This document shows positions 3,650 through 33,719 of a stretch of DNA of 33,719 bases, piece after piece; the first letter of the stretch is position 1, and every line of letters starts with the position of its first letter. Source of the DNA: Escherichia coli (lineage in GTDB: Bacteria > Pseudomonadota > Gammaproteobacteria > Enterobacterales > Enterobacteriaceae); NCBI RefSeq assembly GCF_003334315.1, contig NZ_QOWR01000051.1; one strand, 5' to 3'. The position numbers and the translations under genes are program-made. The notes beneath the pieces are model-generated. The model did not search any database. It saw only the letters and a list, made by a program, of their open reading frames with translations, and had not been told where the DNA came from.

Positions 3650-4413
3650 ATACTGCTCGTCTGAACCAGGGCACGCCATTGTTGCTCAATGCAGTAAGCA
3701 AACATTACGCGGAAAATATCGTCCTGAACCAACTGGATTTACATATTCCGGCAGGTCAGTTTGTGGCGGTGGTGGGCCGCAGCGGTGGTGGCAAAAGTAC
3801 CCTGCTGCGCCTGCTGGCAGGTCTGGAAACGCCAACCGCAGGCGATGTGTTAGCGGGCACCACACCGCTGGCTGAAATTCAGGAAGACACGCGAATGATG
3901 TTTCAGGATGCGCGTCTGCTACCGTGGAAATCGGTGATTGATAACGTTGGGTTAGGCCTTAAAGGCCAGTGGCGCGATGCCGCACGTCGAGCGTTGGCTG
4001 CGGTAGGACTGGAGAATCGCGCAGGGGAATGGCCTGCCGCACTTTCTGGCGGGCAGAAACAGCGAGTGGCGCTGGCAAGAGCGTTGATTCATCGACCGGG
4101 ATTATTGTTGCTTGATGAACCGCTCGGGGCGCTGGACGCCTTAACGCGACTCGAGATGCAGGATTTGATTGTGTCACTTTGGCAGGAGCACGGCTTTACC
4201 GTACTGTTGGTGACGCATGATGTGAGCGAAGCGGTAGCGATGGCTGACCGGGTGCTGTTAATTGAAGAGGGAAAAATTGGTCTGGATTTGACAGTGGATA
4301 TCCCCCGTCCGCGTCGATTAGGGTCGGTGCGATTAGCGGAGCTGGAAGCGGAGGTGTTGCAACGGGTGATGCAACGTGGTGAATCTGAAACTCGCCTGAG
4401 AAAACAGGGGTAA
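3646..4413 (+). CDS. ssuB: Aliphatic sulfonate ABC transporter ATP-binding protein
   Basis: 255 aa with Walker [13 protein letters not shown] signature LSGGQKQR and Walker B LLLDEP; ATGA overlap with ssuC. Confidence 0.93.
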
Positions 4414-8569: not shown

Positions 8570-8704
8570 ACCTTTAATTCCGAAATCTTTCGCTGCATTT
8601 GCGAATTCTGCTTGTCTGATTGCAGATGCCAGGTAACATAGGTATCCCCCCATTTACGGGTGGACAAGTGTTTATTTTTTCCGACTATTAACAGAGAGAA
8701 TATT

Positions 8705-10105
8705 ATGAGCGTTGTGCCTGTAGCCGACGTACTCCAGGGCCGTGTAGCCGTTGACAGCGAAGTCACCGTGCGCGGATGGGTACGTACCCGCCGAGATTCA
8801 AAAGCTGGCATCTCCTTCCTCGCCGTTTATGACGGTTCCTGCTTTGATCCTGTACAGGCTGTCATCAATAATTCTCTGCCCAATTACAATGAAGACGTCC
8901 TGCGTCTGACCACCGGCTGCTCGGTCATTGTGACGGGTAAAGTCGTGGCGTCGCCGGGCCAGGGGCAACAATTTGAAATTCAGGCCAGCAAGGTTGAAGT
9001 TGCTGGTTGGGTTGAAGATCCAGACACTTACCCGATGGCGGCAAAACGCCACAGCATTGAGTATCTGCGTGAGGTCGCTCACCTGCGTCCGCGCACAAAC
9101 CTGATTGGTGCCGTCGCGCGCGTTCGCCATACGCTGGCGCAGGCGCTGCATCGCTTCTTTAACGAGCAGGGATTCTTCTGGGTTTCAACGCCACTGATTA
9201 CCGCATCTGATACCGAAGGTGCAGGCGAAATGTTCCGCGTTTCTACGCTGGATCTGGAAAACCTGCCGCGTAACGATCAGGGCAAAGTGGATTTCGACAA
9301 AGACTTCTTTGGTAAAGAGTCTTTCCTGACCGTATCTGGCCAGTTGAACGGCGAAACCTACGCTTGCGCATTGTCCAAAATTTATACCTTCGGCCCGACT
9401 TTCCGTGCTGAAAACTCCAACACCAGCCGTCACCTGGCGGAATTCTGGATGCTGGAGCCGGAAGTGGCGTTTGCTAACCTGAACGATATTGCGGGTCTGG
9501 CTGAAGCCATGCTGAAATATGTCTTCAAAGCGGTTCTCGAAGAACGCGCTGACGACATGAAATTCTTCGCTGAACGCGTAGATAAAGATGCCGTTTCACG
9601 TCTGGAACGCTTCATTGAAGCCGATTTTGCGCAGGTGGATTATACCGACGCAGTGACCATTCTCGAAAACTGCGGCAGGAAGTTTGAAAACCCGGTTTAC
9701 TGGGGAGTCGATCTCTCTTCTGAGCATGAGCGTTATCTGGCGGAAGAACACTTTAAAGCACCGGTAGTGGTTAAAAACTATCCGAAAGATATTAAAGCGT
9801 TCTATATGCGCCTTAACGAAGACGGTAAAACCGTTGCGGCTATGGACGTTCTGGCTCCGGGCATCGGTGAGATCATTGGTGGCTCCCAGCGTGAAGAACG
9901 TCTGGACGTGCTGGACGAGCGTATGCTGGAAATGGGCCTGAATAAAGAAGATTACTGGTGGTATCGCGATCTGCGTCGCTACGGTACTGTTCCGCATTCA
10001 GGTTTCGGTCTTGGTTTTGAACGTCTGATTGCTTACGTAACTGGCGTGCAAAACGTACGTGATGTGATTCCGTTCCCACGTACTCCGCGTAACGCCAGCT
10101 TCTAA
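8705..10105 (+). CDS. asnS: Asparaginyl-tRNA synthetase
   Basis: ORF track starts at 8660; [14 protein letters not shown] begins at the ATG at 8705, giving 466 aa; class II aaRS sequence matching AsnS. Confidence 0.93.
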
Positions 10106-10118
10106 TTTAGCGTCTTCA

Positions 10119-10146
10119 AGAGCCAGCGCCCGCTGGCTCTTTTTTA
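10119..10146 (+). terminator. Intrinsic terminator of asnS
   Basis: agagccagcg-cc-cgctggctct hairpin followed by tttttat, 14 bp after the asnS stop. Confidence 0.8.
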
Positions 10147-10216
10147 TCTTTTCTGTCAAGTTATCTGTTTGTTAAGTCAAGCAATCTATTTGCAACCCCG
10201 CCATAACGATCATCCT

Positions 10217-10246
10217 GTTACGGAATATTACATTGCAACATTTACG
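10217..10246 (+). promoter_or_regulatory. Distal OmpR-binding site F4 of the ompF promoter (recalled)
   Basis: gttacggaatattacattgcaacatttacg lies about 350-380 bp upstream of the expected ompF transcription start, where I recall the F4 site; not verified by search. Confidence 0.45.
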
Positions 10247-10496
10247 CGCAAAAACTAATCCGCATTCTTATTGCGGATTAGTTTTTTCTTAGCTAATAGC
10301 ACAATTTTCATACTATTTTTTGGCATTCTGGATGTCTGAAAGAAGATTTTGTGCCAGGTCGATAAAGTTTCCATCAGAAACAAAATTTCCGTTTAGTTAA
10401 TTTAAATATAAGGAAATCATATAAATAGATTAAAATTGCTGTAAATATCATCACGTCTCTATGGAAATATGACGGTGTTCACAAAGTTCCTTAAAT

Positions 10497-10560
10497 TTTA
10501 CTTTTGGTTACATATTTTTTCTTTTTGAAACCAAATCTTTATCTTTGTAGCACTTTCACG
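10497..10560 (+). promoter_or_regulatory. OmpR-binding sites F1-F3 of the ompF promoter
   Basis: tttacttttggttacatattttttctttttgaaaccaaatctttatctttgtagcactttcac matches the tandem OmpR-box region of ompF as I recall it, about 40-100 bp upstream of a start roughly 110 nt before the ATG. Confidence 0.6.
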
Positions 10561-10706
10561 GTAGCGAAACGTTAGTTTGAATGGAAAGATGCCTGCAGAC
10601 ACATAAAGACACCAAACTCTCATCAATAGTTCCGTAAATTTTTATTGACAGAACTTATTGACGGCAGTGGCAGGTGTCATAAAAAAAACCATGAGGGTAA
10701 TAAATA

Positions 10707-11795
10707 ATGATGAAGCGCAATATTCTGGCAGTGATCGTCCCTGCTCTGTTAGTAGCAGGTACTGCAAACGCTGCAGAAATCTATAACAAAGATGGCAACA
10801 AAGTAGATCTGTACGGTAAAGCTGTCGGTCTGCATTATTTCTCCAAGGGTAACGGTGAAAACAGTTACGGTGGCAATGGCGACATGACCTATGCCCGTCT
10901 TGGTTTTAAAGGGGAAACTCAAATCAATTCCGATCTGACCGGTTATGGTCAGTGGGAATATAACTTCCAGGGTAACAACTCTGAAGGCGCTGACGCTCAA
11001 ACTGGTAACAAAACGCGTCTGGCATTCGCGGGTCTTAAATACGCTGACGTTGGTTCTTTCGATTACGGCCGTAACTACGGTGTGGTTTATGATGCACTGG
11101 GTTACACCGATATGCTGCCTGAGTTTGGCGGTGACACGGCATACAGCGATGACTTCTTCGTTGGTCGTGTTGGCGGCGTTGCTACCTATCGTAACTCCAA
11201 CTTCTTTGGTCTGGTTGATGGCCTGAACTTCGCTGTTCAGTACCTGGGTAAAAACGAGCGTGACACTGCACGCCGCTCTAACGGCGACGGTGTTGGCGGT
11301 TCTATCAGCTACGAATACGAAGGCTTTGGTATCGTTGGTGCTTATGGTGCAGCTGACCGTACCAACCTGCAAGAAGCTCAACCTCTTGGCAACGGTAAAA
11401 AAGCTGAACAGTGGGCTACTGGTCTGAAGTACGACGCGAACAACATCTACCTGGCAGCGAACTACGGTGAAACCCGTAACGCTACGCCGATCACTAATAA
11501 ATTTACAAACACCAGCGGCTTCGCCAACAAAACGCAAGACGTTCTGTTAGTTGCGCAATACCAGTTCGATTTCGGTCTGCGTCCGTCCATCGCTTACACC
11601 AAATCTAAAGCGAAAGACGTAGAAGGTATCGGTGATGTTGATCTGGTGAACTACTTTGAAGTGGGCGCAACCTACTACTTCAACAAAAACATGTCCACCT
11701 ATGTTGACTACATCATCAACCAGATCGATTCTGACAACAAACTGGGCGTAGGTTCAGACGACACCGTTGCTGTGGGTATCGTTTACCAGTTCTAA
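10707..11795 (+). CDS. ompF: Outer membrane porin F
   Basis: 362 aa with signal peptide [22 protein letters not shown], mature [10 protein letters not shown]... and C-terminal VYQF; appears identical to K-12 OmpF from memory. Confidence 0.96.
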
Positions 11796-11820
11796 TAGCA
11801 CACCTCTTTGTTAAATGCCG

Positions 11821-11851
11821 AAAAAACAGGACTTTGGTCCTGTTTTTTTTA
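11821..11851 (+). terminator. Intrinsic terminator of ompF
   Basis: Stem aacaggac / gtcctgtt with loop tttg, followed by a T8 run. Confidence 0.8.
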
Positions 11852-11979
11852 TACCTTCCAGAGCAATCTCACGTCTTGCAAAAACAGCCTGAGTTTTCAT
11901 CAGTAATAGTTGGAATTTTGTAAATCTCCCGTTACCCTGATAGCGGACTTCCCTTCTGTAACCATAATGGAACCTCGTC

Positions 11980-13170
11980 ATGTTTGAGAACATTACCGCC
12001 GCTCCTGCCGACCCGATTCTGGGCCTGGCCGATCTGTTTCGTGCCGATGAACGTCCCGGCAAAATTAACCTCGGGATTGGTGTCTATAAAGATGAGACGG
12101 GCAAAACCCCGGTACTGACCAGCGTGAAAAAGGCTGAACAGTATCTGCTCGAAAATGAAACCACCAAAAATTACCTCGGCATTGACGGCATCCCTGAATT
12201 TGGTCGCTGCACTCAGGAACTGCTGTTTGGTAAAGGTAGCGCCCTGATCAATGACAAACGTGCTCGCACGGCACAGACTCCGGGGGGCACTGGCGCACTA
12301 CGCGTAGCTGCCGATTTCCTGGCAAAAAATACCAGCGTTAAGCGAGTGTGGGTGAGCAACCCAAGCTGGCCGAACCATAAGAGCGTCTTTAACTCTGCAG
12401 GTCTGGAAGTTCGTGAATACGCTTATTATGATGCGGAAAATCACACTCTTGACTTCGATGCACTGATTAACAGCCTGAATGAAGCTCAGGCTGGCGACGT
12501 AGTGCTGTTCCATGGCTGCTGCCATAACCCAACCGGTATCGACCCTACGCTGGAACAATGGCAGACACTGGCACAACTCTCCGTTGAGAAAGGCTGGTTA
12601 CCGCTGTTTGACTTCGCTTACCAGGGTTTTGCCCGTGGTCTGGAAGAAGATGCTGAAGGACTGCGCGCTTTCGCGGCTATGCATAAAGAGCTGATTGTTG
12701 CCAGTTCCTACTCTAAAAACTTTGGCCTGTACAACGAGCGTGTTGGCGCTTGTACTCTGGTTGCTGCCGACAGTGAAACCGTTGATCGCGCATTCAGCCA
12801 AATGAAAGCGGCGATTCGCGCTAACTACTCTAACCCACCAGCACACGGCGCTTCTGTTGTTGCCACCATCCTGAGCAACGATGCGTTACGTGCGATTTGG
12901 GAACAAGAGCTGACTGATATGCGCCAGCGTATTCAGCGTATGCGTCAGTTGTTCGTCAATACGCTGCAGGAAAAAGGCGCAAACCGCGACTTCAGCTTTA
13001 TCATCAAACAGAACGGCATGTTCTCCTTCAGTGGCCTGACAAAAGAACAAGTGCTGCGTCTGCGCGAAGAGTTTGGCGTATATGCGGTTGCTTCTGGTCG
13101 CGTAAATGTGGCCGGGATGACACCAGATAACATGGCTCCGCTGTGCGAAGCGATTGTGGCAGTGCTGTAA
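11980..13170 (+). CDS. aspC: Aspartate aminotransferase
   Basis: 396 aa starting [21 protein letters not shown], with the PLP-lysine context [14 protein letters not shown]; matches AspC. Confidence 0.95.
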
Positions 13171-13230: not shown

Positions 13231-13330
13231 GCCTGATGCGCTACGCTTATCAGGCCTACGCGTCCCCTGCAATATTTTGAATTTGCACGATTTTGTAGGC
13301 CGGATAAGGCGCTCGTGCCGCATCCGGCAT
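13231..13330. repeat. REP/BIME element (two inverted REP units)
   Basis: gcctgatgcgctacgcttatcaggcctac (13231-13259) and gtaggccggataaggcgctcgtgccgcatccggcat (13295-13330) are typical REP palindromes in opposite orientation. Confidence 0.8.
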
Positions 13331-33266: not shown

Positions 33267-33719
33267 GGTAATGACTCCAACTTATTGATAGTGTTTTATG
33301 TTCAGATAATGCCCGATGACTTTGTCATGCAGCTCCACCGATTTTGAGAACGACAGCGACTTCCGTCCCAGCCGTGCCAGGTGCTGCCTCAGATTCAGGT
33401 TATGCCGCTCAATTCGCTGCGTATATCGCTTGCTGATTACGTGCAGCTTTCCCTTCAGGCGGGATTCATACAGCGGCCAGCCATCCGTCATCCATATCAC
33501 CACGTCAAAGGGTGACAGCAGGCTCATAAGACGCCCCAGCGTCGCCATAGTGCGTTCACCGAATACGTGCGCAACAACCGTCTTCCGGAGACTGTCATAC
33601 GCGTAAAACAGCCAGCGCTGGCGCGATTTAGCCCCGACATAGCCCCACTGTTCGTCCATTTCCGCGCAGACGATGACGTCACTGCCCGGCTGTATGCGCG
33701 AGGTTACCGACTGCGGCCT
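33267..33719 (-). mobile_element. IS1 insertion sequence, partial (insB-proximal end; continues right of the window)
   Basis: Terminal inverted repeat ggtaatgactccaacttattgat at 33267-33289, followed by the InsB reading frame on the minus strand; inverted relative to the left-edge copy. Confidence 0.92.
33282..33719 (-). CDS. insB: IS1 transposase InsB (N-terminus and insA outside window)
   Basis: Minus-strand frame reads ...[31 protein letters not shown]...[21 protein letters not shown], open to the window edge; the ORF track reports only the part after the internal Met (33282-33659). Confidence 0.9.

Follow-up and report, generated by a model that had tools for sequence, protein, structure and literature searches.

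Does the DNA between asnS and ompF in this Escherichia coli isolate (assembly GCF_003334315.1, contig NZ_QOWR01000051.1) hold an ompF control region of the kind characterised in K-12, or has it been altered, and does the locus reveal the lineage of the strain? We examined these questions in a stretch of 33,719 nucleotides, which in its full length we call the window and whose first letter is position 1. On sequence grounds the region is almost certainly the canonical, unmutated E. coli ompF regulatory region; everything found in it is already described for E. coli K-12, and no new biology is added.

The asnS-ompF spacer

The window carries the segment pncB-asnS-ompF-aspC on its plus strand, with the following boundaries (from the list of open reading frames and the sequence):

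10105, plus strand: last base of the asnS stop codon
10106-10706: asnS-ompF spacer, 601 bp from the asnS stop to the ompF ATG
10707-11795, plus strand: ompF coding sequence, 362 codons plus stop
11980, plus strand: start of aspC

The spacer, introduced in the preliminary description as an AT-rich intergenic region of about 600 bp, is exactly 601 bp long and has a GC content of 34%, as against 52% for the whole window. We aligned positions 8660-13170 with K-12 MG1655 and with the best database match, strain CP53. Against K-12 the spacer shows a single difference, a run of six T residues (T6) at 10140-10145 where K-12 has seven (T7), and positions 10147-10706 are 100% identical; the comparison with CP53 likewise gives one difference, again T6 in the window and T7 in CP53. 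No substitution falls in the OmpR boxes or the MicF site when the spacer and ompF are aligned with K-12, and OmpR boxes F1-F4, core promoter and leader are all those of K-12, in agreement with the earlier claim of an intact, K-12-type regulatory region. We accept the region as real on account of its identity to the K-12 sequence, which has been characterised by experiment, and not on the strength of motif statistics; the control region is presumably functional. An Rfam search of the spacer returned only sub-threshold Listeria sRNA noise, and a full-text literature search with the OmpR box sequences gave no match.

For the comparison across species we used 113 loci with enough upstream sequence (loci L020-L139 were compared). 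The upstream neighbour of ompF is asnS in 103 loci, and the spacer measures either about 300 bp (Pantoea-type) or 587-618 bp. Conservation over the 113 loci is 0.96 at the MicF site, 0.84-0.86 in the leader, 0.79 in the core promoter and 0.66-0.81 in F1-F3; taken across 71-113 enterobacterial species, F1-F3, core promoter, leader and CRP box lie at about 0.8-0.96 (with F1-F3 at the values just given in the 113 loci). Within the class of about 600 bp (71 genomes), the distal half of the spacer holds conserved islands at the stem of the asnS terminator, at the TGTTAC of F4, at -198 to -169 and at -134 to -107 (relative to the transcription start, as placed below).

Core promoter, CRP box and distal conserved block

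Upstream of the ompF leader the following elements were located:

10582-10590, plus strand: extended -10 element TGgAAAGAT, made up of TGn (10582-10584) and the weak -10 hexamer AAAGAT (10585-10590)
10465-10486, no strand assigned: CRP box AAATATGACGGTGTTCACAAAG, centred at -121.5, of the form TATGA-N6-TCACA
10399-10428, no strand assigned: deeply conserved block, -198 to -169 (conservation profile, 71 species)

In the published description of the ompF promoter the -10 hexamer, AAAGAT, is weak and requires the TGn in front of it (PMC2613000), and the TGgAAAGAT element is near-invariant in the 71 species. The same study places -12 at the first A of AAAGAT and reports that OmpR overlaps the -35 region of ompF (PMC2613000). 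We therefore set the transcription start (+1) at 10597, deriving it from that hexamer position, since we did not find the start coordinate itself stated in the open-access literature.

The sequence TATGA-N6-TCACA at 10468-10483 matches TGTGA-N6-TCACA at nine of ten positions, and the box around it is the most conserved upstream block in the 113 loci, with TGA and TCACA invariant in every one. A homologous CRP site, with which the box aligns, has been footprinted with DNase at -131 to -109 of Yersinia pestis ompF, where direct CRP control of the gene was presented as a Yersinia innovation (PMC3050693); E. coli ompF is itself a CRP target in RegulonDB and was recovered by genomic SELEX (PMC3105977). 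We infer that in E. coli CRP binds exactly the box at 10465-10486. We briefly considered this box as a new element for E. coli and dropped the idea on account of the RegulonDB and SELEX record (PMC3105977).

The block at -198 to -169 is overlapped by an IHF-consensus-like sequence, WATCAANNNNTTR with one mismatch, at 10420-10432. This block is presumably where an upstream IHF site has been mapped, and it is probably that site. The CRP box, this block and the second hairpin discussed below were absent from the preliminary description; all are known or conserved elements. As a separate observation, a direct repeat, AGTTCC(T/G)TAAATTTT, occurs at 10485-10499 (the junction of CRP box and F1) and at 10628-10642 (in the leader stem-loop), and the AGTTCC of both copies lies within sequence conserved across species.

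OmpR boxes

The four OmpR-binding sites are placed as follows, each identical to K-12:

10497-10516, plus strand: F1, -100 to -81, TTTACTTTTGGTTACATATT (register and key bases checked)
10517-10536, plus strand: F2, -80 to -61, TTTTCTTTTTGAAACCAAAT (register and key bases checked)
10539-10558, plus strand: F3, -58 to -39, TTATCTTTGTAGCACTTTCA, overlapping the -35 region
10217-10246, plus strand: distal site F4, -380 to -351, GTTACGGAAT ATTACATTGC AACATTTACG

In the register published by Delihas and colleagues, F1 occupies positions 1-20, F2 positions 21-40 and, after two skipped bases, F3 positions 41-60, with the key bases A4, C5, A14, C15, A34, C35 and C53 and with GNNNC motifs in the boxes (PMC1489923). 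With F1 set at 10497, all seven key bases are present, as are three GNNNC motifs (GTTAC, GAAAC and GTAGC). The published register thus gives 10497-10558 for F1-F3, within 2 bp of the interval 10497-10560 at which they had been placed. F3 is invariant in 14 of 14 E. coli alleles. Within the species F1, F2 and F4 are polymorphic and no better conserved than their flanks; F1 and F4 being as variable as the surrounding sequence, within-species variation alone does not mark the boxes.

The distal site was likewise found where it had been placed, at 10217-10246. Its successive 10-bp units begin with GTTAC, ATTAC and AACAT, and the gap of 250 bp between F4 and F1 in the window is in keeping with a weak OmpR site reported to lie upstream of F1-F2-F3 at a distance of about 260 bp (PMC3050692). 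A half-site matrix derived from F1-F3 ranks F4 about 75th among 67,400 window positions (top 0.1%), and shuffled AT-rich spacer scores as well in most trials; we rejected this matrix as a test of F4, which it cannot separate from shuffled spacer. What leads us to accept F4 is its identity to the sequence footprinted in K-12, and not motif statistics. The TGTTAC that opens F4 is conserved across genera, and 46 species keep it 259-264 bp away from the proximal TCACAAAG, with only about 50-60% conservation of the sequence between. A fixed spacing of 259-264 bp is what one would expect if looping or phasing constrained F4 relative to the proximal sites, and this footprint is, as far as sequence comparison goes, a tidy confirmation of the looping model.

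Leader and MicF pairing site

Downstream of the promoter we distinguish:

10597-10706, plus strand: ompF 5' leader, 110 nt, with a long imperfect stem-loop at 10608-10678 (RNA fold)
10690-10717, plus strand: MicF pairing site, covering the Shine-Dalgarno sequence GAGGG (10693-10697) and the AUG (10707)

The leader, expected at about 110 nt, is exactly that length with +1 at 10597. Its mean conservation is 0.90 in the 71 species, and the stem-loop at 10608-10678 agrees with the 'large stem loop' described for the ompF leader (PMC1489923).

The conserved 5' end of MicF pairs with the 3' end of the ompF leader (PMC1489923). Taking nucleotides 1-33 of K-12 MicF as the pairing arm, we ran RNAduplex over 1682 window tiles on both strands. 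The arm pairs best at 10690-10717, with -27.1 kcal/mol against a mean of -10.6 (standard deviation 3.5), and the predicted duplex of about 28 nt extends from the last 17 nt of the leader into the first 11 coding nucleotides; the MicF 5' end (GCUAUCAUCAUUA...) is thus complementary, as predicted, to the ribosome-binding site and start codon of ompF. The site is invariant in 14 E. coli alleles, and the 22-mer at 10693-10714 occurs exactly in at least 120 species-representative genomes. The leader had been named as a whole as the MicF target; the pairing site is indeed intact and identical to K-12, and it is confined to 10690-10717 rather than extending over all 110 nt.

A near-tie for the MicF arm lies at 3762-3793 on the plus strand, inside ssuB (-26.4 kcal/mol), so that duplex energy alone is not decisive. 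This match, which falls in the G-rich Walker-A coding sequence and leaves a large internal loop in the duplex, is probably due to chance. Duplexes with the full-length 93-nt MicF were uninformative (-39.4 kcal/mol versus a shuffled mean of -32.7, with many window tiles scoring better) and were set aside. K-12 micF adjoins ompC about 1.3 Mb away, beyond the window.

Coding sequence and 3' end

The ompF product is identical over 362 of 362 residues to the full-length chain of PDB 3hw9, and its accession, WP_000977920.1, is shared by CP53, BL21(DE3) and PD7. The coding DNA differs from that of K-12 at eight positions (10826, 10841, 11120, 11123, 11129, 11135, 11138 and 11276), all of them silent, since the protein is identical to K-12 OmpF; one silent change separates it from BL21(DE3), and with CP53 it is identical. 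The statement that the coding sequence appears identical to K-12 is thus correct for the protein and incorrect for the DNA, and the absence of a divergent porin allele is borne out by the full match to the reference protein.

Five of the eight silent differences are packed into 19 bp (11120-11138), in the codons for the PEFGGD motif of the L3 loop, and ompF, at 1.1 kb, accounts for 8 of the 49 mismatches to K-12 found in the whole window. This cluster looks like a small recombination patch; its DNA (11120-11138) is the same in CP53 and nearly the same in BL21(DE3). Beyond the stop codon lies one further element, which was read from the sequence and is not among the hits of the terminator scan:

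11826-11850, plus strand: likely ompF terminator, ACAGGAC-TTTG-GTCCTGT followed by a T-run

Farther downstream, between aspC and gloC, positions 13252-13294 of the minus strand match the ES036 (CssrF) small RNA (53 bits, E = 2.6e-08), the sole Rfam match above gathering score in the window.

Variation among E. coli strains

The ompF locus is present in all 5,426 complete E. coli genomes. The 560-bp control region is identical in about one sixth of some 5,425 such genomes and at least 99% identical in 1,441, the remainder being mostly 96.6-98.2% identical; an exact match to all 1,690 bases occurs in none of the 5,426. We aligned twelve alleles (PD7 and eleven taken from the control-region matches) with K-12. 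F3, core promoter and MicF site are invariant in the sampled alleles except for two core-promoter changes, each in a single strain.

Two of the sampled isolates carry lesions worth recording. In ST12468, a blood isolate, an IS1 element with a 9-bp target duplication lies in the leader at +10 to +18, corresponding to window positions 10606-10614, and separates the ompF promoter from its gene. In 08A21CPO005, a carbapenemase-producing clinical isolate, a T>G change at -7 (10590) turns AAAGAT into AAAGAG, plausibly a porin-down promoter mutation. Given that other sampled isolates have such ompF lesions, the present result is a mildly useful negative with regard to antibiotic resistance through porin loss. 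Otherwise it is of little significance that ompF in this strain has a wild-type control region and encodes the reference protein.

Alternative readings of the locus

Three further features of the spacer bear on other ways of reading it:

10118-10145, plus strand: asnS intrinsic terminator, stem 10118-10141 (AAGAGCCAGC / GCTGGCTCTT) with loop GCCC, followed by the T-run at 10140-10145 (terminator scan)
10250-10286, no strand assigned: perfect inverted repeat with 15-bp arms and a 7-nt loop, flanked by an A-run and, at the opposite end, a T-run (repeat finder)
10416-10445, minus strand: sigma-70-like promoter, TTTACA-18-TATGAT, matching at 10 of 12 positions (promoter scan)

The T6 run in the tail of the asnS terminator is the sole spacer difference from K-12 and the sole gap relative to K-12 in 33 kb, and one might suppose that it weakens termination and lets transcription of asnS read through into the ompF control region. 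The exact 70-mer around the run occurs in only 2 of 2,817 matching genomes, which could suggest a rare state; we rejected that interpretation, what is rare being the exact 70-mer, with T6 common in other haplotypes. Among 12 alleles chosen irrespective of the T-run, six naturally have T6, that of O157:H7 being one of them. The terminator hairpin is unchanged at -17.8 kcal/mol (z = -4.45 for the RNA fold) and is still followed on its 3' side by TTTTTTATCTTTT, its stem is kept in the 71 species with E. coli variation confined to loop and flanks, a second strong hairpin stands 110 bp downstream, and T6 could itself be a homopolymer sequencing error. We consider read-through of this origin very improbable. 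That second hairpin, at 10250-10286, looks like a bidirectional terminator (-21.2 kcal/mol on the plus strand and -20.3 on the minus strand, z about -5.5), and it leads to another reading, in which the spacer would contain an independent minus-strand gene. Two array studies have reported an opposite-strand transcript or putative small ORF, C0240, between ompF and asnS (PMC3082872), and the promoter-like site at 10445-10416, both of whose hexamers are invariant in 14 E. coli alleles, together with a 3' hairpin at 10286-10250 resembling a bidirectional terminator, could give this transcript, whether it encodes a protein of 39-42 amino acids or is a non-coding RNA. Several observations speak against a gene: of the 14 alleles, four have premature stops in the ORF, O157:H7 has a frameshift and in the other six alleles that are not of K-12 type the stop codon is gone; only the haplotype of K-12, B and the window has the hairpin in perfect form, which in other E. 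coli alleles folds at just -3 to -14 kcal/mol, degraded without compensating changes, with CP131 as an example of a degraded hairpin; other genera do not keep the minus-strand -35 hexamer; the block at -198 to -169, which contains the '-10', offers a better account of the constancy of that hexamer; and the C0240 region has no match in Rfam. We accordingly rejected the ORF as a gene, broken or extended as it is in most other alleles, and regard an independent C0240 gene of either kind as doubtful; the opposite-strand element would be at most a lineage-specific non-coding transcript. It is a more speculative and quite unlikely idea that hairpin and minus-strand promoter yield a lineage-specific non-coding C0240 of about 160 nt inside the loop between F4 and F1-F3, and that C0240 transcription, or termination of asnS read-through at the hairpin, tunes looping and ompF repression in a haplotype-specific manner.

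The preliminary description also saw in the porin a sign of a K-12-like or B-like lineage. Closeness to both holds: K-12 and B strain C3029 have the same regulatory region as the window, the OmpF protein is that of K-12 and BL21(DE3), and positions 98-33266 align collinearly with K-12 over 33.2 kb, showing 49 mismatches and 1 gap (99.85% identity), BL21(DE3) giving 62 mismatches and 2 gaps over the same length (99.81%). Those mismatches are also what separates the window from either strain, and its ompF DNA is neither that of K-12 nor that of BL21(DE3) but that of the pig isolate CP53. IS1 termini (GGTAATGACTCCAACTTATTGATAGTG...) occupy positions 1-97 and 33267-33719, sites at which K-12 and BL21(DE3) have no IS1; the two ends are inverted, the same IS1 end facing inward, and bracket the 33.2 kb of K-12-collinear chromosome, the left copy lying in the ssuE-elfA spacer and the right copy interrupting ycaI. 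Over 25 kb the window is matched best by isolates from pig, human and chicken that carry many IS1 copies, and WP_000977920.1 is found also in JS316 and E10, whose regulatory regions are only about 98% identical; a protein common to divergent regulatory haplotypes is not diagnostic of lineage. The sequence thus refutes identity with K-12 or B, and we give next to no credence to the locus as a marker of either laboratory lineage: the strain is a close relative of both, about equally close, and is neither one.

The junctions of the IS1 copies were also searched for in other genomes. A query spanning the ycaI junction is at least 80% covered in about 51 genomes, and the left junction is present exactly and in one piece in at least 3; in CUVM53, which shares the left junction with the window, ycaI is intact and the OmpF allele is another one. 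A second mismatch cluster relative to K-12, 9 mismatches in 142 bp, lies in ssuE (318-459) and suggests a recombination patch.

Proposed control and comparison with known systems

The reading that we prefer, a canonical K-12-type control region, is contradicted by nothing in the data. Because the sequence is identical, the mechanism worked out in K-12 can be transferred to the window. OmpR-P would bind F1-F2(-F3) in tandem beside the weak TGn/AAAGAT promoter and activate ompF at low osmolarity; at high levels of OmpR-P, the weak distal F4, the repressing site in the looping model, would be filled as well, a DNA loop would form across about 260 bp and the promoter would be shut off. The CRP box at -121.5 would add catabolite control, and under stress the 5' end of MicF would pair with the ribosome-binding region at the end of the leader and block translation. 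Identity, positions, conservation and pairing potential of the region are observations on this DNA; OmpR-P binding with osmolarity-dependent activation and repression, and more generally the action of the proteins and of MicF on the region, are expected for this strain from the likeness to K-12. The window covers the target of the circuit, its trans-acting half (ompR and envZ, and likewise micF and ompC) lying beyond it.

Set against K-12 MG1655 (asnS-ompF spacer and ompF, b0929; NC_000913.3, 985,894-987,584), the window has the same F1-F4, CRP box, TGn/AAAGAT element, 110-nt leader, MicF site and OmpF protein, and it differs by the T6 run after the asnS terminator (T7 in K-12) and the eight silent changes in ompF. 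CP53 (NZ_CP033096.1) and similar pig, poultry and human isolates have the same ompF coding DNA and the same spacer apart from the T-run, which is T7 in CP53 and T6 in the window. BL21(DE3) (NC_012971.2) encodes the same OmpF protein with one silent coding difference, whereas its record departs from the window at three places in the control region: a T>C change in F4 (10234, -363), a G>T change at -18 (10579) and a 1-bp deletion in F1 at 10515 (-82), at the boundary of F1 and F2. B strain C3029 has none of these three changes and equals K-12 and the window over the 560 bp; those of BL21(DE3) are either real promoter variants or errors in the record. In Y. pestis the ompF promoter has F1-F2-F3 in tandem as in the window (PMC3050692), and the CRP site is in the same place (-131 to -109 in Y. 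pestis, -132 to -111 in the window) with the common core TCACAAAGT (PMC3050693). Y. pestis, however, has no F4, and high osmolarity does not lead to repression of its ompF (PMC3050692), whereas the window has F4 at the conserved distance.
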